Positions 10,123-52,918 of a stretch of 64,000 nt of DNA are shown here, piece after piece. The stretch is from an uncultured virus (IMG/VR IMGVR_UViG_3300043781_000019). Taxonomy: Duplodnaviria > Heunggongvirae > Uroviricota > Caudoviricetes > Herelleviridae. A program made the position numbers and the translations under genes. The notes beneath the pieces are model-generated. The model made no database searches, was not told where the DNA came from, and saw nothing but the letters and a program-made list of their open reading frames with translations. Each line of letters opens with the position of its first letter. The stretch's first letter is position 1. Where the stretch lies: the IMG/VR virus record IMGVR_UViG_3300043781_000019. One strand, 5' to 3'.

Positions 10123-10160
10123 CAATTTTCCTCCTTTCTCAATTATATCACAATTTTGCA

Positions 10161-27081: not shown

Positions 27082-30000
27082 TGGAAGATTTTACCGATGA
27101 GGTTCTCACTAGAAAAGTCCCTGGGGTAATTCAAAGTGCCAACTCTTATTCTGGTAGTGACATTGCTAAGATTGCTAAGAACACCTTTGGCGATGTTTCT
27201 AGTATTACACCAGAACAGTTAGCCTTACTTATGGACTATCTAGTGCCTAGCTCATACATGCTTAGAAACCATAGAATTAAAAACGGCCAGCAAAAGTTCA
27301 CCTTTTCTGTGCCTAACTATGGTGACAATATTAGTTCCAAAGCCTTCTCACATAGACCATAAACTATTGCTGTGGTCTTTAAACTCTGTTAAACGGGCAT
27401 AGGAGAAATAAGGTATGAAAGTACACGAATATCCTGGTAAGAAAGGCTAAATCCCCTTTAGGGACAATGCTAACCACCGTACTAAATCAAGCATTATATG
27501 CTTGTAAAGGTCTAAAGACTAAGTTTCTGGATAACTATACAAACGGGTATAGCTATAACCAGATAAGAAAACCTAAGTATCCCTTAGGAAGTAAAGCAGA
27601 GAACCTTTAAAAAGGTTAAGATATAGTCTAATCCCCTAATAAATATCGGGAAACCGAGGGTATTAAATAATGGGCAAAAACAAATTGTCAATGACCTTTA
27701 TCCGAGTGTTGTTACACTTAAGGCCCGGCAATTGGGATTTTCAGAAATAGGTGTAGCATTTATGCTTTGGTGGGTAGATGTGCACTCATACGCTGGTGTA
27801 AACAGCTTGTATACATTCCCTGAACCTTTGTGGGGCTTCTAAGAGAAATCTTAGTTGAAAAACCTTGTTAAACGGGCATAGTAAAATAGTGTGCATAGAA
27901 ACATAAATATACTGGTAAGAAAGGCTAAATCCTAATGCACAAGGACAGAGCTGACCTACCGTGCTAAATAGAACTGCAATTAGGGTTCTTACATGCCTAA
28001 CGACTAAAATTCTGGATAAATACACAAATGGGTGTATTGAAAATCAGATGAAAAAATTTGCAAAATATTAGTACAAAGTATGAACATATGTTATAATATT
28101 ATTGGTGATATTATGACAAAAAGAGTGACAAATAAAGAATTTTTAACAAAGCTAACACTTAAATATGGAACAGAATTTTCTATCCTATCCCCGTATGTTA
28201 AAAGCAGTATAAAGATCCTTGTTAAACATAACATTTGCGGAAATGTTTGGAAAGTTACGCCTAATAATTTGCTTAGAGGAAGAAAATGCCCTAAATGCAA
28301 AAACAGAATAAGTCCAAATGATTTTTCCGATAGGGTTTATAAAGAAACTAATGGCAATCTAAAAGTTGTTGGTAAGTATATAGACTGTGATACCGCAGTC
28401 AAGGTGCTATGCAAAAAGCATGGGTGTTACTTTTATATAAAACCAAGAAGCTGTTATAGTAGTAAAAGATCAAAGTATAAGTGCCCAAAGTGTCGATCCG
28501 AAGCAGTATCAAAAGAAACCTCTAAGGATCAAAATACATTTCTAAAAGAGCTTAAAATAAAGCACCATGGAAGTATTGTATGCTTAGATAAATATGTTAA
28601 TACACATACAAAGCTACACTTTAAATGCTTAAAATGCAACCATGTATTCTTTTCGGAACCAAACTCTGTTATAAGATTAAGCGGTTGTCCTACATGTGCA
28701 GAATCCCACGGAGAACAAGCAATAACGTATTTTCTAGAAGATAAAAACATAGAGTTTGAAAGACAGAAGTCCTTTAATGATTGCAAGTATAAAAGAAAGT
28801 TAAAATTCGACTTTTTCTTGCCAGAAAAAAACATGTTTATAGAATATGATGGAATGCAGCACTTTAAACCAATAGAGTTTTTTGGAGGCGATAAAGCCTA
28901 CAAGCATCAAAAACATCTTGATTCAATAAAAGATAAGTATGCCCTTAAAAGGGGAATCAAGATGGTTAGAATAAAGTATACACCAAGATTAGATATACTT
29001 AATAAAGAACTTATCAATATATTTTGCAAAAAGTAAAGCAAGGGGACTTATTCCAAAGTTTAAGCCCAAGAGATAGTCTGACCTTATACGAAAGCATAAG
29101 ATAACAAAAATGACAATACGCCAGATGAATGACTTCGTTCGTCAAAGGCTCGATCCAGTTTTGCAGTTGCCTTACTATAGGGCAATTATTGATCCAAATA
29201 TGAACTCAATTAATGCTAAAAGAATTCGCAACTCTAACATGTCATTCCGTACCAGTAGTAAGCCCGGATCAGTTGAAGGGCTTAACGTAGACATGGTATC
29301 CATTGATGAATTTGATAGGGCTAATATACAGGCCATACAGTCTGCTGAAAACTCTATGAGTTCTTCTAAGTTTAAAGTAAGCAGGAAGTGGAGCACACCA
29401 ACAGCTCCAAACGTTGGAATCCACGACCTTTTCGTACACTCCGACCAAATGGAATACATTCACAAGTGTCAACACTGTGGCTATTGGAATCTACTTAATT
29501 ATGCTGACTATGTTGATGATGGTGATCCTCATAGTGGTGGCAACATAAGGTTGCTTAATCCAGATGGGATTAACCTTGCTGCTCGTGCTGTTATGCCGGG
29601 TACCTACCAGTTTGTGTGTGCTAAGTGTGGAAAGCCTTTAGATCGATGGTATAGCGGAACATGGGGTGCTAGGTACCCTTCACGTACTCAGGACACAAAC
29701 GGTACCAGAGGATACCATATTTCGCAAATGAACGCCGTCTGGATCACAGCAGATGCACTTAAAACGGCGGAGCTTAATGCTAAGTCAAAACAAGCATTCT
29801 ATAACTATAACCTAGGTATGCCTTATCAAGACACTAAGTTACAAGTATCTGACGCAGATGTAAAAGACCATGCTACTTTCCCTAAGCGAAGACTTAATCG
29901 TGACGGTTACCAATTGGTAGCCGTTGGTATTGACTGGGGTGAACAATACCATCACTGTGTTGTCATGGGTATGCGTGCTAATGGTGCCTATGATATGCTA

Positions 30001-30624
30001 AATGTCTTTAAAGTCAAAGCTGTAGGTGCAACAAATGTTGTTGGCTCTGGTTCCGACATTATGGCCATAAAGCTAAAGTTAAGAAACTATGACCCTGACA
30101 TCATCATTGCCGATGTCGGCGATGCTGGTGAAAAGATACATGCCTTAATGGAAATATATGGCCAAGATAAGGTCTATGGTGGTAAGTATAGCTCTAACCC
30201 CACAGCAGGATTATACGCCGCCTCAGGCAAGTTTGAAACAACTTGGAGTGATACTACTAACACAGCCACAATGGACAAGCTAACACAAAATAAGCGCTTC
30301 ATTGACCTTATGAAACGTGGCATGATTGGCTTCTGGGAACAAGATGATGAGGAGCTAGAAACATATATCAAGCACTGGCAAAATGTGTTCATTAGAGATG
30401 ATGAGCAAGACGATGGTAGCTTTAGACAGGTAATAGGCCGCAGAGGTGGGGATCATTACGCCCAGGCAAGCGTCATCTGCCTTGAAGCGCTTGATTACAT
30501 CCGTAAGCAGGTCTATAGTGAGGACTCCTATGATTTCTCCTATACTGACCTTGATACACGTATGAAGCCTGATAACCCTGACATTGTTAACAGATTAAAA
30601 GAATCTGGTAACATATTTGAATAA
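27081..30624 (+). CDS. terL: Terminase large subunit, spliced join(27081..27360,27673..27821,29113..30624), 646 aa
   Basis: Splicing restores HRP-W-QKQIVND, KARQLGFSE, YTFP-TIRQM; Walker B SIDEFD; nuclease GIDWG and GGDH. Confidence 0.9.
27361..27672 (+). other. Group I intron 1 in terL (312 nt, ORF-less)
   Basis: Exon ends in U within P1 (gaccat/gtggtc); intron ends in G; core motifs aagacta and gatatagtcta; frame restored on removal. Confidence 0.88.
27822..29112 (+). other. Group I intron 2 in terL (1291 nt) with endonuclease ORF
   Basis: Exon ends ccct pairing with gggg; tttgt can pair with the exon 3 start acaa; terminal G; core closely similar to intron 1; gagatagtctga. Confidence 0.88.
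28113..29036 (+). CDS. Intron-encoded homing endonuclease: Zn-ribbon repeats plus Vsr-like PD-(D/E)xK domain
   Basis: Three CxxC modules; SHGE...FDFFL...IEYDGMQH; GGTGA RBS and TGnTATAAT upstream. Confidence 0.8.
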   Translation: MTKRVTNKEFLTKLTLKYGTEFSILSPYVKSSIKILVKHNICGNVWKVTPNNLLRGRKCPKCKNRISPNDFSDRVYKETNGNLKVVGKYIDCDTAVKVLCKKHGCYFYIKPRSCYSSKRSKYKCPKCRSEAVSKETSKDQNTFLKELKIKHHGSIVCLDKYVNTHTKLHFKCLKCNHVFFSEPNSVIRLSGCPTCAESHGEQAITYFLEDKNIEFERQKSFNDCKYKRKLKFDFFLPEKNMFIEYDGMQHFKPIEFFGGDKAYKHQKHLDSIKDKYALKRGIKMVRIKYTPRLDILNKELINIFCKK

Positions 30625-30661
30625 ACAAAAAGACCCTCTAGAAATTAATCTAGGGGGTCTT
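30624..30661. terminator. Intrinsic terminator, U tract on - strand
   Basis: agaccctctag...ctagggggtct hairpin. Confidence 0.7.
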
Positions 30662-30833
30662 CTCGTATCAAGAAAGGAGGGTAGAATTTTGTTCAATTGC
30701 TAAACTAACCACTAGCTACATTTTTACCTTAGTCTCTTCCCACATGTACTCGTTGTAGGTCCTACACGTGTAAATCTAAGAGCCTAAGGGTGTTTCATTA
30801 ATTTACCTATCTAGCAATTTCCATCATCTACAA
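30625..30833 (-). ncRNA. Candidate ~200-nt rod-shaped small RNA (6S-like fold)
   Basis: TTGACT-17-TATTAT promoter (30867-30839), nested inverted repeats, terminator, only a 4-codon ORF seen. Confidence 0.5.
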
Positions 30834-30863
30834 ATACTATAATAGCACAATAGCTTCTAAAAG

Positions 30864-31124
30864 TCAACCTAAATACTCATTTAATTTATCCATTCTTAAG
30901 TCGCACCATGAATCCTTTAAAGAACCATCGTCATTATAAACCTTAACAATTGGAAATGAATTAAACCCTTGCTTTTTAAACTGTACTAATTTCTTATCCG
31001 TGTATTCTTTATTGTCACCTGTTAAGAGTGTCTTACGTGTGTAAGGTATTCCTTTAACTTTAAATTTTCGTTCTGTCATTCGGCACTTAGCGCAGCCCGG
31101 CTTATCATAAATCTTGTATGTCAT
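30864..31124 (-). CDS. nrdH: NrdH-like glutaredoxin
   Basis: YDKPGCAKC...SFPIV. Confidence 0.8.
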   Translation of the reverse strand: MTYKIYDKPGCAKCRMTERKFKVKGIPYTRKTLLTGDNKEYTDKKLVQFKKQGFNSFPIVKVYNDDGSLKDSWCDLRMDKLNEYLG

Positions 31125-31253: not shown

Positions 31254-32610
31254 GTGAACTACTCGTCACTAAAGTGGCAAGCTTCTAGGAACACTGCATA
31301 CTTATACAGAAAGCCTAAACTTACTGTAAAGAGGTTACAGCTATTTTACTAAGGGCTGTTCCAGCCCATCTTAGTCTTTTAAGCATTTAAGATATTCTTT
31401 GCAGCGTTAATATCCCTGTCGTGGTGAACACCACAACGTGGACATATCCACTCTCTAATATCTAAGGTATGCTTACCATCATCATAGCCACAACTAGAAC
31501 ATATCTGTGAAGTTTTTCTAGGGTTTACAGTGACTAACTGTTTACCATACCATGCACATTTATATTCTAGCTGTCTCCTAATCTCTCTCCAACTTGCGTT
31601 AGTTATTGCTCTAGACAGCTTATGATTCTTAAGAAGATTTTTGGTTTTCAAATCTTCTATTTTGATTATATCATACTGTTCTATCAGTTGTCTAGTAAGT
31701 AAGTGCAAGTAGTTACTTCTTTGATTAGCTATCTTCTCACTGTACTTAGCAACCATAGCTTTTGCTTTCTGGTAGTTCTTGAAATCATTTAGATCTCTAG
31801 GCTCTAGTACCTTATTATGCTTATCCCAAGCTATTTCTGCTTGTGCTTGTAATCGTCTACGTGCCAATCTTTTCTCCCAGTAATGTTTCTTCTTGGCTAG
31901 GATCTTGTCGAACCTGATTGTTGGGTATTTAATACCATCACTGGTAATCATCAAATCAGCTAAACCCATGTCAATACCTACTTGCTTATTAGTCTTGCTT
32001 AGTGCTTGGTTTTCACACTCTGCAATCAGTACAAGATAGTATTTACCAGTATGTGTAAGTTTAATTGTTCCTAGCTTAATCTTGCTAATTTCTTCTAGCT
32101 TTTTGCTGCTCCCTTTAAACTTCATGTACCCAAGCTTAGGAAACTTAACTTTGCTATCCTTTAGCTTAATCATATAATTTGTTTGATAACTTTGCTTGGG
32201 GTACTTCTTAGCTTTAAACTTAGGAAATCCCTTATTAGTCTTAAAGAAATCCTTGTAAGCATCAACTAGATTTTTACAAGTTATCTGTAAACTATGACTC
32301 TCTGCTTCCTTAAGCCAATGATATTTTAGCTTCATTGCAGGTAATAACTTATCTAAAGTAAAGGCACTTGGAAAAGGTAACTTGGGATTATTAGCATATC
32401 TCTCCTGTAGCATACCCAGCATCTGGTTCCAAACAAATCGGTTGTAACCAAAGTTAAGCTTAATACTTGCTTGCTGTTCTTTGCTAGGGTATATTCTTAG
32501 CTTAATACCCTTCAATACCATATTTATCACCTTTATATCCTGTATCAAAATCTGCAAAGCAAAGAGGATTCATCTTGTCACTAAAGTAACTAGTTTTCTC
32601 AACTAGTTCC
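31254..32610 (-). mobile_element. IS200/IS605-family solo-TnpB element (IS1341-like)
   Basis: TTGAT directly 5' of left end; similar subterminal hairpins (gttactttagtgac, gccactttagtgac); right end ...GAGTAGTTCAC; no tnpA. Confidence 0.85.
31379..32521 (-). CDS. tnpB: TnpB RNA-guided endonuclease
   Basis: KLRIYP N-terminus; RuvC GIDMG, IEDL, DRDINAA intact; CSSCG/CPRCG zinc finger; likely start 32521. Confidence 0.95.
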   Translation of the reverse strand: MVLKGIKLRIYPSKEQQASIKLNFGYNRFVWNQMLGMLQERYANNPKLPFPSAFTLDKLLPAMKLKYHWLKEAESHSLQITCKNLVDAYKDFFKTNKGFPKFKAKKYPKQSYQTNYMIKLKDSKVKFPKLGYMKFKGSSKKLEEISKIKLGTIKLTHTGKYYLVLIAECENQALSKTNKQVGIDMGLADLMITSDGIKYPTIRFDKILAKKKHYWEKRLARRRLQAQAEIAWDKHNKVLEPRDLNDFKNYQKAKAMVAKYSEKIANQRSNYLHLLTRQLIEQYDIIKIEDLKTKNLLKNHKLSRAITNASWREIRRQLEYKCAWYGKQLVTVNPRKTSQICSSCGYDDGKHTLDIREWICPRCGVHHDRDINAAKNILNA

Positions 32611-32616
32611 ATCAAG

Positions 32617-32790
32617 TTAGTCAATTTTATTTAGTGCATACTTTGCCATAAGGTGACTTGCAAAGCTACTAGCAGTTACCTTATTAGGGTTCCATTCCTG
32701 AATATCTTTATTTAGTAACCTTAACACACTACTAACATCAATGCAACCTAATTTTTGCAACTCATCTTTAACCTGTTCTTGCTTACTCAT
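32617..32790 (-). CDS. Small hypothetical protein
   Basis: AGGAGG RBS before MSKQ; late motif upstream. Confidence 0.6.
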   Translation of the reverse strand: MSKQEQVKDELQKLGCIDVSSVLRLLNKDIQEWNPNKVTASSFASHLMAKYALNKID

Positions 32791-32837
32791 TGTTCCCCTC
32801 CTAGGCATGTATAATATAGACTTAGGAGGTAGGATGT

Positions 32838-35688: not shown

Positions 35689-36019
35689 AGTACAATCTCC
35701 TTATCCTGTTATGCGGTATAACCATAGCACAATGAATATAAAAAGTCAATAGTAAATTTAAATATACCAAAAAGTAATGTTTATTAAGTTATTAATCCTT
35801 AACCTTATTTTGTTCATGATTTGTAAACATTGGTAACTTTTTAAACCTTTAAATAAAGTAAATACTCCTTTCTTATAATCCCTAAGTGTGCCCCTTAGTG
35901 CTCTTATTACCCCGAGTACCCTTAGGGCATTTAGGTAGTATTCTAGCCTTATCTAAAGGTTTAAATCTTTTTGCTTTTGGTCTTGCTTTTTCAGCTTTAG
36001 CTGATAGCCTTATAGGAAA

Positions 36020-49652: not shown

Positions 49653-49725
49653 GCTTCCTTAGCTCATTAGGTAGAGCACTTGTTTTGTAAGCAAGAGGTG
49701 ACTGGTTCAAGCCCAGTAGGAAGCA
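49653..49725 (+). tRNA. tRNA-Thr(TGT)
   Basis: Cloverleaf, loop TTTGTAA, no encoded CCA. Confidence 0.9.
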
Positions 49726-49963
49726 TAGATTCAAATAAGCAATAGGCGATACCTTAAGCAAAATAACTAATATTTGGATTAAGCACTAAAAAGTGTTGAC
49801 ATTTAAAGCAGCACATGGTACACTTATTACTGTTGAAAGGCAAAAGGGATAAGGAAGATATAAAACGTGAGTTTTGTTAGTTAGAAAAATTAAAAAATAG
49901 GCCTTGACATTTTAGATAAGTTGTGTTAGTATTAAATTATGGTCATTAATAAGTGGCCATTTT

Positions 49964-50035
49964 GGACCGTTAGCTTAATGGTAAAGTCGTCAGCTCATAC
50001 CTGATTTTATGAACGTTCGAGTCGTTCACGGTCCA
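49964..50035 (+). tRNA. tRNA-CAT (Ile2 or Met)
   Basis: GGACCGT/ACGGTCC acceptor, loop CTCATAC. Confidence 0.8.
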
Positions 50036-50040
50036 TTTAT

Positions 50041-50133
50041 AGTCCTGTAGCACAGTGGTAGTGCACCCGGCCTATACCCGGCATATGTCAGTAGATTTTC
50101 TGAACGACATCGGTTCGATCCCGATCAGGACTA
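50041..50133 (+). tRNA. Atypical tRNA, TAT anticodon, long variable arm
   Basis: AGTCCTG/CAGGACT acceptor, good D and T arms, loop CCTATAC, ~25-nt variable arm. Confidence 0.7.
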
Positions 50134-50261
50134 TTAAAAAGTTATAACGTAGCAAAATTTGGCCTAGGGAAACGAGGCTTACTGATCTAAGTAAAAAATC
50201 TACGTTTAGAGTTTCCTTGTTAATATCTCTTTAAGGGATACTAGCAAGCTTCTCTATAAAT

Positions 50262-50336
50262 GTTCCCATAGCACAACTGGATAGTGCATCTGTCTTCTAA
50301 ACAGTAATTTTCCCAGTTCGAGTCTGGGTGGGAACA
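50262..50336 (+). tRNA. tRNA-Arg(TCT)
   Basis: Cloverleaf, loop CTTCTAA. Confidence 0.88.
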
Positions 50337-50372
50337 TTGTGTATGAAAAAAATAAGTGAAAGGAGATAAAGC

Positions 50373-50660
50373 ATGACTATTCTTTGCCCTAATAAGTTTA
50401 ATCAGTACTTAGAAGATCACAATTTAGAAATATATGATGTTGCTAAGATGATGAGAGATTCCCCCTATAATAAAAGTAGAAGAACTCGTCAAGCATATGT
50501 TAGACTTCTAGAGCAAGCTTTTATGTACGGGTGGTCTACAGTAAATGCTCTTGGTGGTGGCTACGAGCCAGGGGTTCACAATGGACAAGATGGCGGAATA
50601 TCTGCTAAGTATGTTGCTAAAATTATTGGGTGCAAGGTTCAAGATATTGTAGGATGGTGA
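50373..50660 (+). CDS. Hypothetical protein, possibly HTH
   Basis: AAGGAG RBS; C-terminal AKIIGCKVQDI. Confidence 0.55.
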   Translation: MTILCPNKFNQYLEDHNLEIYDVAKMMRDSPYNKSRRTRQAYVRLLEQAFMYGWSTVNALGGGYEPGVHNGQDGGISAKYVAKIIGCKVQDIVGW

Positions 50661-50666
50661 CTTTAA

Positions 50667-51149
50667 ATGAATCATAAGGTGGTATTTGAAGATAAAAATG
50701 TATTAGTATTTCACATTTATAGTAGCCTTGACAACCCTACTATGCTTAAGGTACAGAAAAGTTTGTACTTCCTTTGGGCTTATTACTCTGGAACCTATGG
50801 TAACTTAGTAGGTAAGGACGGACTAGATATTTCAAAAGAGGATTACCCAGAGTCCCTATTTAAGGGAAATTTTAAGGCACTTATGTATGGACCTGTTGAT
50901 ATAGATGTTCTTAAAAAGCAAAAAGAGAACTTCTACAGTAAAGATAAGTGGAAGGGGTATACCCCTAAAGGAAGTTCAGAAATAGAAGTTATGGGGTTCG
51001 TTAATGACCTATTGGGTCAAATAAACGCTGTAAATGACTTTGGACTAATTAATAGATGCCATGAAGATAATTGTTGGAAGCAAGCCTATGAAAATGGTAG
51101 GGAAAGCTATATGGATCTTGATGCTATAAGAAAAGAGTACCAGATTTAG
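50667..51149 (+). CDS. Panacea/SocA (DUF4065)-like antitoxin
   Basis: LKVQKSLYF...LF...F.A..YGPV...L....H....WKQA. Confidence 0.75.
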   Translation: MNHKVVFEDKNVLVFHIYSSLDNPTMLKVQKSLYFLWAYYSGTYGNLVGKDGLDISKEDYPESLFKGNFKALMYGPVDIDVLKKQKENFYSKDKWKGYTPKGSSEIEVMGFVNDLLGQINAVNDFGLINRCHEDNCWKQAYENGRESYMDLDAIRKEYQI

Positions 51150-51163
51150 TATTACTTATTAAT

Positions 51164-51235
51164 GTTTCCATAGAACAATGGATAGTTTACCGGTTTCCTA
51201 AACCGTTAATTCCGGTTCGAGTCCGGATGGAAACA
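51164..51235 (+). tRNA. tRNA-Arg(CCT)
   Basis: Cloverleaf, loop TTCCTAA. Confidence 0.88.
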
Positions 51236-51272
51236 TATTGGCAAATATGCTTATAATACTTTTGCCAATTGC

Positions 51273-51301
51273 TTGCATTAGAAGTAAAAGTGTGTTATAC
51301 T
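51273..51301 (+). promoter_or_regulatory. Sigma-A-type promoter of the large-RNA block
   Basis: TTGCAT-17-TATACT with TG. Confidence 0.7.
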
Positions 51302-51317
51302 TAAAAAGTAGTAAAAC

Positions 51318-51907
51318 CTTGCTCCTTGAAAACTGAATCCGATTCAACCATGTGTATAAGGTGATTGCTTCACCGTCATGGATACCCATGCTAAGTAATG
51401 TCGTAAGCTGCTTTTAGGGATACCTTTAGCAACTTGCAGAATATATGGAAACATATAGGAAGGCTGTAAAAGCAGTCAATTAATGGGTAGTGCTAGTTGT
51501 TGTGACATAAGGCATAGGACTGGTTGGGTAGGCAATAGACGCCCTGTTGGGAATAAGCCAGCAAGCCCCTGTGGTAGCTCTTGGGGAAACGCTGGTACGC
51601 TATAACTACCTTAGCTATGAAAAGCGGAAGGCACCGTGTGAGGCTGATAAAAAAGCTTCACGATAAAACCAGAAACTAGTAAAAGTAGGCTAAGGCTAAA
51701 TTTAGAAAAATACTATTGGAGTATTAAAATAAATCGAATGCAGGCTGAAATTTGGGCATCAAAGAATGCGCCCTTGCAAGTTAAAAGCACTTAGTTGTTA
51801 TAGGGTAGCTCCCTATAGCACGGGCTAAGTGGGCAAGTTGCCTAATAATGGTAGCAACAATATGGTAGGAGTAAAAGACGGATCGGGTTTAGTTTTCAGG
51901 GAGCAAG
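51318..51907 (+). ncRNA. Large ornate ncRNA, probably ROOL-like
   Basis: 590 nt closed by a 28-bp terminal helix; many internal hairpins; tRNA-adjacent; family inferred from size and context. Confidence 0.6.
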
Positions 51908-51960
51908 TGTGCTTATAATGCATATTATGTTGCTGTATTCAAGTAGGTAAGAGAGTACAA

Positions 51961-52174
51961 ATCGCTGTGGCGGAACAGGTAAACGCTATGGGTGATAGAC
52001 GAAGGCTTGGTGTCAAGGCAACGGTAAATGGCGGAACATAAATGGACTGAGTAGTTGCCAGCCTTAAAAAGTAGATGAATAGTAATTCGCCTGTGAAGTT
52101 AGTCAACTGTGACCATATCCGTTCCTAATCCATCTACAATGTGTCATGTCGGGTGCAAATCCCGACCAGCGATA
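51961..52174 (+). ncRNA. tRNA scaffold with large structured insert
   Basis: ATCGCTG/CAGCGAT acceptor, D arm, T-like arm GTCGG-GTGCAAATC-CCGAC. Confidence 0.65.
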
Positions 52175-52407
52175 TTACCGGTAAAGCCTAGCGCGCTTGC
52201 TAGCGCGGACTAGTGGGCGAGTATAAAGCGTGGTCACATGTCTTGCACTTCAAGGCAATGTGGGAACCACCATGACTGAGGGTTCAGAAACCATCGCCTC
52301 GGATAGCGGAAACATGAGCAACTGGCGTTTAGGCGTTAACGGAAACCAGAAATCGCTTTTTCGTGGTATCTGTTATCAGGTTCAAATACCGGCGGTTGCA
52401 TACAAGG

Positions 52408-52480
52408 TTGGTATTAGCTAAGTGGGAAAGCGTCCCATCACGAGGTGGGGAATGAGCAGGTTCGATTCCTGCATACCACA
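52408..52480 (+). ncRNA. tRNA-like RNA with 8-nt anticodon loop TCACGAGG
   Basis: Acceptor, D and canonical T arms. Confidence 0.7.
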
Positions 52481-52845
52481 TATTAGCCGCGAAGGTCTGG
52501 AGCAATCCTACGTTCCGATGCAAAAGCCTGTGCACGGGTTATTAGAAGGCTAAGCTACATATTGTTGCTTGTACATTGGCAACTAAAATATTAATGTAGA
52601 TAATTCAACTCCCCTGCAAGGCGAAAGCCTATGTTGCAGAAAGCCCCCATATTGATACGGGATATGGGAAAGTAGCAGACGTGCTCATGATGGTGCTGTT
52701 CGCGGTCTCGGCCATCAATCAGTTTTATGTACATGGTAAAGCCCTACGTGTTTGCTAGCATGGACAAGGGGTGATTACAAAGGTGTGCTGAATTAGCTTG
52801 GCACGTAACCAAGGACTTAGAAACCTTCGCCTTGGATAGCATGGG

Positions 52846-52918
52846 TTGAGAGTAGCTAAATGGAAAAGCGCCCCGTCATTAGGCGGGTAATAAGTGGGTT
52901 CGATTCCCATCTCTCAAA
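52846..52918 (+). ncRNA. tRNA-like RNA with 8-nt anticodon loop TCATTAGG
   Basis: TTGAGAG/CTCTCAA acceptor, D and canonical T arms. Confidence 0.7.

Follow-up and report, generated by a model that had tools for sequence, protein, structure and literature searches.

Within a 64,000-nucleotide (nt) stretch of the uncultured virus IMGVR_UViG_3300043781_000019 (hereafter the window, to which all positions refer), the minus strand very probably carries a real, stand-alone gene for a non-coding RNA of about 205 nt (from about 30831 to 30627) that is transcribed as a unit. The best explanation that we can offer for it, with a probability of roughly 0.4, is a trans-acting small RNA (sRNA) of the RsaE/RoxS type, made early in infection by the host RNA polymerase and pairing with Shine-Dalgarno regions. 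This is the reading that best fits the pattern of conservation, and the proposed mechanism is drawn from anatomy and conservation, not from a target. To judge from its sequence, the window is that of a Mooreparkvirus phage (Herelleviridae) of Lacticaseibacillus and kin of the phages Lb338-1 and Lbab1: the region is 90-92% identical to these two Lactobacillus phages (blastn against a phage collection), both of which belong to the genus Mooreparkvirus and have Lacticaseibacillus casei/paracasei as host.

The original prediction, made from the letters of the window alone, had placed a self-contained sRNA unit on the minus strand, running from a sigma-A promoter to a terminator, and this architecture holds up. 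The unit lies in a 239-nt gap between two convergent genes, a glutaredoxin-like gene on the minus strand and terL, the terminase large-subunit gene, on the plus strand. Its promoter agrees with the sigma-A consensus at 10 of 12 hexamer positions and adds the TG of an extended -10, whilst the -35 TTGACT overlaps the TGA stop of the glutaredoxin-like gene; transcription is predicted to start at G30831, the G of GUAGAUGA. In the alignment, the -35 hexamer and TGTGCTAT are invariant in all five full-length sequences, whereas the spacer varies at 6 of its 17 positions and the discriminator at two, a pattern expected of a promoter in use. At the other end, RNAfold recovers a terminator hairpin (30659-30632) with its U-run, right after the terL stop codon as seen on the plus strand, and the U-run is better on the minus strand (UUUUUGUUU) than on the plus strand (UCUUCUCGU). 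A simple consensus terminator scan did not list this hairpin, because its stem contains one C-A mismatch.

No plausible coding function competes with this view. Only two open reading frames (ORFs) of at least 20 amino acids (aa) overlap the unit (33 and 28 aa); both have TTG starts and no ribosome-binding site, both cross the terminator, and the few substitutions in them track the hairpin and no reading frame. As a separate observation, CUAAGGUAAAAAUGUAG (30715-30732, minus strand), invariant save for one T/C change in Lb338-1, can be read as a weak ribosome-binding site with a 6-nt spacer and an AUG followed by UAG, a start-stop that is probably coincidental. As for expression, a fermentation metatranscriptome (X20) contains a 173-nt contig of the Lbab1 type that lies wholly within the predicted transcript (about 30822-30653, a span that counts its 30-nt end matching the Lbab1 5' block). 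The flanks of the sRNA had no cover in two RNA runs; these are contig data, and hence no proof of a discrete transcript. Runs with a small share of matches were uninformative on habitat.

Selection acts on two parts, the hexamers of the promoter and a 3' block of 67 nt, rather than on the apical rod. The predicted RNA comprises four helices: P1 (30831-27/30685-81, 5 base pairs (bp)), P2 (30819-09/30705-695, 11 bp), P3 (30789-78/30738-27) and P4 (30770-63/30748-41). The 3' block (Table 1) brings together the 3' strands of P3, P2 and P1, the 3' side of the internal loop, a stretch complementary to Shine-Dalgarno sequences, and a small hairpin. By comparison, the flanking coding sequences have diverged, with identities of 239/258 and 241/258 (92.6-93.4%) for the glutaredoxin-like gene and of 273/295 and 262/295 (88.8-92.5%) for the 3' end of terL. 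Within the RNA, the 5' block is identical to Lbab1 at 33 of 35 positions and to Lb338-1 at 31 of 35, and the lowest identities, 84.5%, 82.7% and 55.2%, are those of the apical part (over 30739-30796, 49/58 for Lbab1 and 32/58 for Lb338-1).

The stretch at the heart of this block is CCUCCUUUCU, the anti-Shine-Dalgarno tail that had been predicted at 30680-30671, right after the 3' strand of the outer helix, and which is indeed found there. The 16S ribosomal RNA (rRNA) genes of two Lacticaseibacillus-genus genomes end in ...GGATCACCTCCTTTCTAAGGA, so that the sRNA copies 10 nt of this tail exactly. The 10-mer occurs twice in the window where 0.12 occurrences are expected, it is invariant in 6/6 sequences, and it is predicted to be unpaired with a probability of 0.90 in the copy of the window and of 0.85 in that of Lb338-1.

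How could such an RNA work? Host sigma-A RNA polymerase would transcribe it from the near-consensus extended -10 promoter, and thus probably early in infection, and the transcript would stop at the intrinsic terminator. The functional core is the invariant 67-nt block, presenting CCUCCUUUCU next to the terminator, and not the apical rod, which tolerates wholesale replacement. P1 and P2, as short closing helices, may tie the 5' end to the 3' block, and in variants with GAGGG near the 5' end the P1/P2 region could partly mask the seed. In trans, the RNA would pair with the Shine-Dalgarno regions of messenger RNAs (mRNAs) and block binding of the 30S subunit, the mode of action of the C-rich-seed sRNAs of Firmicutes (RsaE/RoxS type), whose seeds occupy the same place between outer helix and terminator.

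Several observations weigh against this proposal. A polymorphism, GAKKG at 30825-30821, which in some variants can pair with CCCUC, decides whether the predicted fold exposes or masks the anti-Shine-Dalgarno stretch: the window has GAUGG and Lb338-1 GAGUG, but in the three GAGGG alleles (Lbab1, L003 and L005) CCUCCUUUCU is mostly paired (unpaired probability 0.36), and in these AGAUGAGGG is predicted to be able to pair with CCCUCCUUU in place of P1. Nor did the search for targets yield specific candidates. Over the rest of the window the RNA has no more complementary stretches than its shuffles do (10 11-mers against 10.3 +/- 4.4), and only four start sites in the window have seed complementarity of at least 8 nt, all of them generic Shine-Dalgarno matches. 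The longest seed matches reach 10 nt, one being AGAAAGGAGG before the ATG at 10139, the best of the four sites, and the other, at 35874, having no start codon within 25 nt; a duplex scan of the window with the tail found none above a background of about -24 kcal/mol. Across 37 host-genus genomes, a 16-mer target allowing up to two mismatches had 36 matches, against 50 for the reversed control. A copy of the general anti-Shine-Dalgarno sequence also offers no obvious means of choosing between host and phage mRNAs, and the fold is backed by neither folding energy nor covariation. Finally, the transcript evidence is one assembled contig without strand or ends, from a library that may contain DNA, and there are just seven related sequences, all close kin.

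Indeed, the family is small however it is sought. Lbab1 and Lb338-1 are joined in it by three IMG/VR contigs that are nearly identical and by a partial contig from a metagenome; when the phage collection was searched, blastn returned Lbab1 and Lb338-1 as its sole matches, exact-pattern scans of IMG/VR returned the same three contigs, with extra fragments reached via terL, and the metagenome scan gave two contigs, one a duplicate. A 19-mer of the tail had no match in a set of one genome per bacterial species, and blastn of the 37 host-genus genomes found no homologue, the best match being 31 nt of the terminator (E 0.003). In these searches the unit is found in no phages but the Mooreparkvirus phages of Lacticaseibacillus. 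The surroundings of terL are different in five other Herelleviridae genera, with co-oriented genes after terL in four and, in SAC12B, a convergent arrangement with an 85-nt gap, so an analogous unit could not be located by position.

Could the locus do without any function in trans? It may simply be the shared 3' end of two convergent operons, consisting of a bidirectional terminator, the 3' untranslated region of the glutaredoxin-like operon and a fortuitous promoter, with the 3' block kept for efficient termination, for insulating late terL from early transcription, or through recent recombination. We regard this as unlikely, if still a serious contender. The unit sits exactly between convergent genes, its terminator is usable on both strands, the family is tiny and young, neither the window nor the 37 host-genus genomes yielded a target, and contigs of two other RNA runs cross the borders between gene and sRNA (30798-30954 and 30460-30689). 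However, a hairpin alone suffices for termination, yet the 67 nt upstream are invariant where the coding flanks diverge by 7-11%; the promoter hexamers are conserved against a varying spacer; and an exact 10-mer of the 16S tail is unlikely by chance.

The same 10-mer could serve a different partner. As a decoy, a structured RNA might bind a protein or ribosome-associated factor that recognises or cleaves the 16S 3' end, with no pairing to mRNA at all, and this would accommodate the exact copy of the tail, the invariance of the whole block even in stretches with no predicted pairing role, and the empty mRNA target searches. It is nonetheless a long shot: the idea is speculative, there is no candidate partner, and the RNA has neither an Rfam family match nor a supported fold.

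The fold is also where the original prediction fares worst. The helices it had drawn are complementary and all four are present in both the minimum free energy (MFE) and centroid folds, and where it had counted two G-U pairs that are mismatches on the plus strand, there are at least three (G30811-U30703, U30809-G30705 and G30767-U30744). The rod-and-bubble body itself does not stand out as a structure. Without the terminator, it folds at -36.6 kcal/mol against -32.4 +/- 3.9 for shuffles (z -1.08; 22 of 200 shuffles as stable), and the whole unit reaches z -4.3 because of the terminator; on the plus strand the corresponding z values are -0.36 and -3.58. Covariation is 0.093 against 0.086 +/- 0.010 in shuffles, 148 of 500 shuffles scoring as high, although six sequences are too few for a decisive test. 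P1 is invariant, P2 varies at two positions by A-U/G-U switches only, and in P4 one G-C to A-U exchange distinguishes the window type from the Lbab1 type, the partial metagenome copy disrupting a neighbouring pair. The G-U pairs, the switches in P2 and the better U-tail all speak for the minus strand.

These results bear on the function first proposed, namely a 6S-like decoy whose rod with a central bubble mimics an open promoter, sequesters sigma-A RNA polymerase and so drives the early-to-late switch. We find this barely credible. The length of about 200 nt, the MFE topology, in which closing helices lead through an internal loop (about 19 x 20 nt) to a terminal stem-loop, and the invariant 3' side of the internal loop all recall 6S RNA. 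Nevertheless, the window has no match to the 6S model (RF00013) at gathering score, and neither it nor any other 6S model matches the window or the Lb338-1 copies at E<=10 with relaxed filters, in a search that is itself insensitive here, as it found nothing in 3/3 host-genus genomes and recovered 6S in only 5 of 14 control genomes. The closing stem amounts to merely 5 + 11 bp, the body fold and covariation are at chance level, and the terminal stem differs in its helix register in Lbab1, whilst in Lb338-1 an unrelated omega-RNA scaffold of 142 nt takes its place; given the limited weight of the negative model result, this replaceable apical stem is the stronger argument against a promoter-mimicking rod. 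A 3' extension of 50 nt that carries a separate terminator is not known from 6S RNA either, which also counts against the proposal. The annotation label "6S-like" can accordingly give way to a better-supported one. On the host side, the Rfam-model search found 6S in Lactococcus lactis and none in the host-genus genomes G002, G009 and G015, where either the first-look filter misses it or the 6S RNA of the genus is divergent.

Other known families fared no better. At gathering score, Rfam returned only ROOL and seven transfer RNAs (tRNAs) from the whole window; in E-value mode, the locus and the Lb338-1 copy gave noise, mostly terminator look-alikes (trpB, His leader), and RsaE at 21 bits. ARAGORN listed 0 genes, and no tRNA-like, Y RNA or phi29 pRNA family matched at E<=10.

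The most unusual relative is that of Lb338-1, in which the apical domain has about 90 extra nt and an unrelated sequence. A 142-nt core of it is 84% identical to window 31396-31255, that is, to the last 18 nt of a tnpB gene and the 124 nt that follow. This tnpB (31379-32557, minus strand) encodes 392 aa with OrfB_IS605 and Cas12f1-like TNB domains, matches ISDra2 TnpB structures (E 6e-57) and has its D, E and D motifs in place. The same segment recurs at the 3' end of annotated transposase genes, four in Lbab1 and two in Lb338-1; all copies end in ...GAGTAGTTCA and diverge immediately after, and the eight copies share a consensus structure with compensatory changes in 12 of 38 pairs. These features we take to be those of a TnpB omega-RNA scaffold, the right end of an IS605-family element, and the tnpB 3' region has no Rfam family match. 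The Lb338-1 allele is therefore a chimera of sRNA promoter and 5' block, omega-RNA scaffold, and sRNA 3' block, with a predicted transcript of about 295 nt. As similarity to Lbab1 resumes exactly at the scaffold end, we posit an insertion-sequence (IS) insertion in the Lb338-1 lineage, followed by deletion of its left part together with the old apical hairpin. We also considered the short alleles as internally deleted or decayed scaffolds and rejected this (alignment z 0.6, 130 of 500 shuffles as good). Whichever its origin, the apical stem is swappable without loss of the unit. A contig with a similar junction comes from a fish-gut RNA run, and the long form may thus extend beyond the sequenced Lb338-1 isolate.

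Might the unit instead be a solo omega-RNA with its own promoter, loading the phage's TnpB nucleases in trans? As a general explanation this is very improbable, and it is more plausible for the Lb338-1 allele alone. There, the centre is a bona fide scaffold (84% over 142 nt) that stops at the ...GTTCA boundary shared by seven other copies and agrees with their covarying consensus structure, and active-looking TnpBs appear to be at hand (four annotated in Lbab1, two in Lb338-1 and one in the window, with D-E-D motifs kept). Yet the window and Lbab1 copies lack significant similarity to the scaffold, and conservation on the 3' side is lowest in the would-be guide just 3' of the scaffold (UGUGGG...), the invariant block lying further downstream. 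Within the window this guide matches only its own locus, and in the short forms no TTGAT precedes the would-be target. The nearest tnpB, about 550 nt upstream of the RNA start, comes with its own scaffold (31396-31254), and none is present at the Lbab1 locus.

One may combine these strands and imagine a device for translation takeover or protection, in which the RNA, expressed by a virulent phage from a strong early promoter of the host type, globally masks strong host ribosome-binding sites or decoys a 16S-tail factor, and the Lb338-1 chimera loads TnpB with the sRNA 3' sequence as guide in a contest between phage alleles. This, too, we consider distinctly improbable. The Lb338-1 allele does illustrate that the guide-RNA scaffold of a transposon can enter an sRNA gene of a phage and stay there under the promoter of that gene, and the captured scaffold is a small but concrete case of the re-wiring of an RNA-guided module, an unusual side-light on the locus.

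The element from which such scaffolds derive deserves some description of its own. In the window, an IS200/IS605-family TnpB-only element (31254-32610, minus strand) lies between a 63-aa ORF (32617-32808) and the glutaredoxin-like gene; it is missing from the same site in Lbab1, and its left flank terminates in TTGAT. A 26-nt direct repeat, CACTAAATAAAATTGACTAACTTGAT, brackets it (32636-32611 and 31252-31227), and the sequence after the scaffold thus copies the left flank, a bracketing that is unlike the outcome of a canonical IS605 insertion. Lbab1 and Lb338-1 are heavily colonised by one TnpB family, which counts at least 580 relatives among the genomes of Lactobacillaceae and Sporolactobacillus, and Lbab1 has a partial solo scaffold just upstream of its holin gene (record 80726-80814, L027).

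Table 1. Features of the sRNA unit and its two neighbouring genes.
Feature	Position	Strand	Remarks
Sigma-A-type promoter	30839..30867	-	-35 TTGACT 30867-30862; 17-nt spacer; extended -10 TGc-TATTAT 30847-30839
5' block of the RNA	30797..30831	-	Predicted start at G30831; 5' strands of P1 (30831-30827) and P2 (30819-30809)
Variable apical domain	30733..30796	-	Contains P3 and P4; unconserved; swapped out in Lb338-1
Invariant 3' block, 67 nt	30666..30732	-	CUAAGG to GAGAAG; one variable column (T/C in Lb338-1) in six sequences
CCUCCUUUCU	30671..30680	-	Directly 3' of P1; copies 10 nt of the host-genus 16S rRNA 3' tail
Intrinsic terminator	30627..30659	-	Stem GACCCCCUAGA / UCUAGAGGGUC, 6-nt loop, U5 tail; hairpin 30659-30632; RNAfold
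Glutaredoxin/thioredoxin-like gene, 86 aa	30864..31124	-	Upstream neighbour; its 3' end contains the sRNA promoter
Terminase large-subunit exon, 504 aa	29110..30624	+	Convergent neighbour; ends 2 nt short of the terminator region

Both neighbours of the sRNA unit are recognisable by homology. The upstream gene matches Pfam Glutaredoxin at E 0.0022, under the family cut-off, and its Lbab1 counterpart is annotated as a thioredoxin. The convergent 504-aa ORF matches GpA_ATPase at E 1.6e-8 and, by tblastn, terminases in 795 phage records. The terL gene is apparently split (28080-30624): the 504-aa ORF starts at position 65 of the GpA ATPase profile and ahead of it lies a 318-aa ORF that encodes a treble-clef zinc-finger domain (DUF4379), likely a homing-endonuclease or intron insertion. 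It is also interrupted in Lbab1 and Lb338-1, at different places from the window.

Elsewhere in the window, a full-length ROOL RNA (210.8 bits, 51324-51898; Rfam, gathering score) is surrounded by seven plus-strand tRNA genes (49653-52918). ROOL and tRNA genes are associated likewise in other Herelleviridae (PMC10383478), and other genera of the family have ROOL/GOLLD-like and possible Y-RNA transcripts (PMC10383478, PMC12282133). The portions available to us of the literature on Herelleviridae non-coding RNA, on Lb338-1, on Lbab1 and Mooreparkvirus, and on phage-encoded anti-Shine-Dalgarno sRNAs contain no description of the RNA discussed here.

Where, then, does this RNA stand amongst known systems? 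If it does pair with Shine-Dalgarno regions, it would add a lytic, dairy- and fermentation-associated Lactobacillus phage to the short list of those that regulate translation by an sRNA of their own. It shares with 6S RNA a length of about 200 nt and a predicted arrangement of closing stem, large internal loop and terminal stem, but its stems are short and unconserved, its apical stem is replaceable, and it has an extra 3' tail and terminator. With TnpB omega-RNAs the likeness is that of the Lb338-1 allele, which holds a central, complete-looking scaffold in the same orientation and with the canonical ...GTTCA boundary; in contrast to them, no tnpB adjoins the unit, and its conserved part lies outside the scaffold.

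RsaE/RoxS (RF01820) is the closer parallel to the RBS-pairing sRNA (that is, one pairing with ribosome-binding sites) that we favour. RsaE ranges across the Bacillales. Like RsaE/RoxS, the phage RNA is a separate sRNA unit that runs from a sigma-A promoter to an intrinsic terminator, and just upstream of that terminator it has a C-rich stretch complementary to Shine-Dalgarno sequences, predicted to be unpaired in the window and Lb338-1 copies. The Rfam RsaE model aligns with precisely this C-rich stretch, the small hairpin and the terminator, a resemblance only, as its scores (21.2 bits, E 0.48 in the window; 21.4 bits, E 0.3 in Lb338-1) lie far below the gathering score of 79 bits and the phage RNA is not a member. 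It differs in being phage-encoded and twice as long, and in having just one seed, a copy of 10 nt of the 16S tail, where RsaE/RoxS has several UCCC motifs. This would make it one more example of a familiar type of regulator, in the form of a genus-specific phage sRNA.

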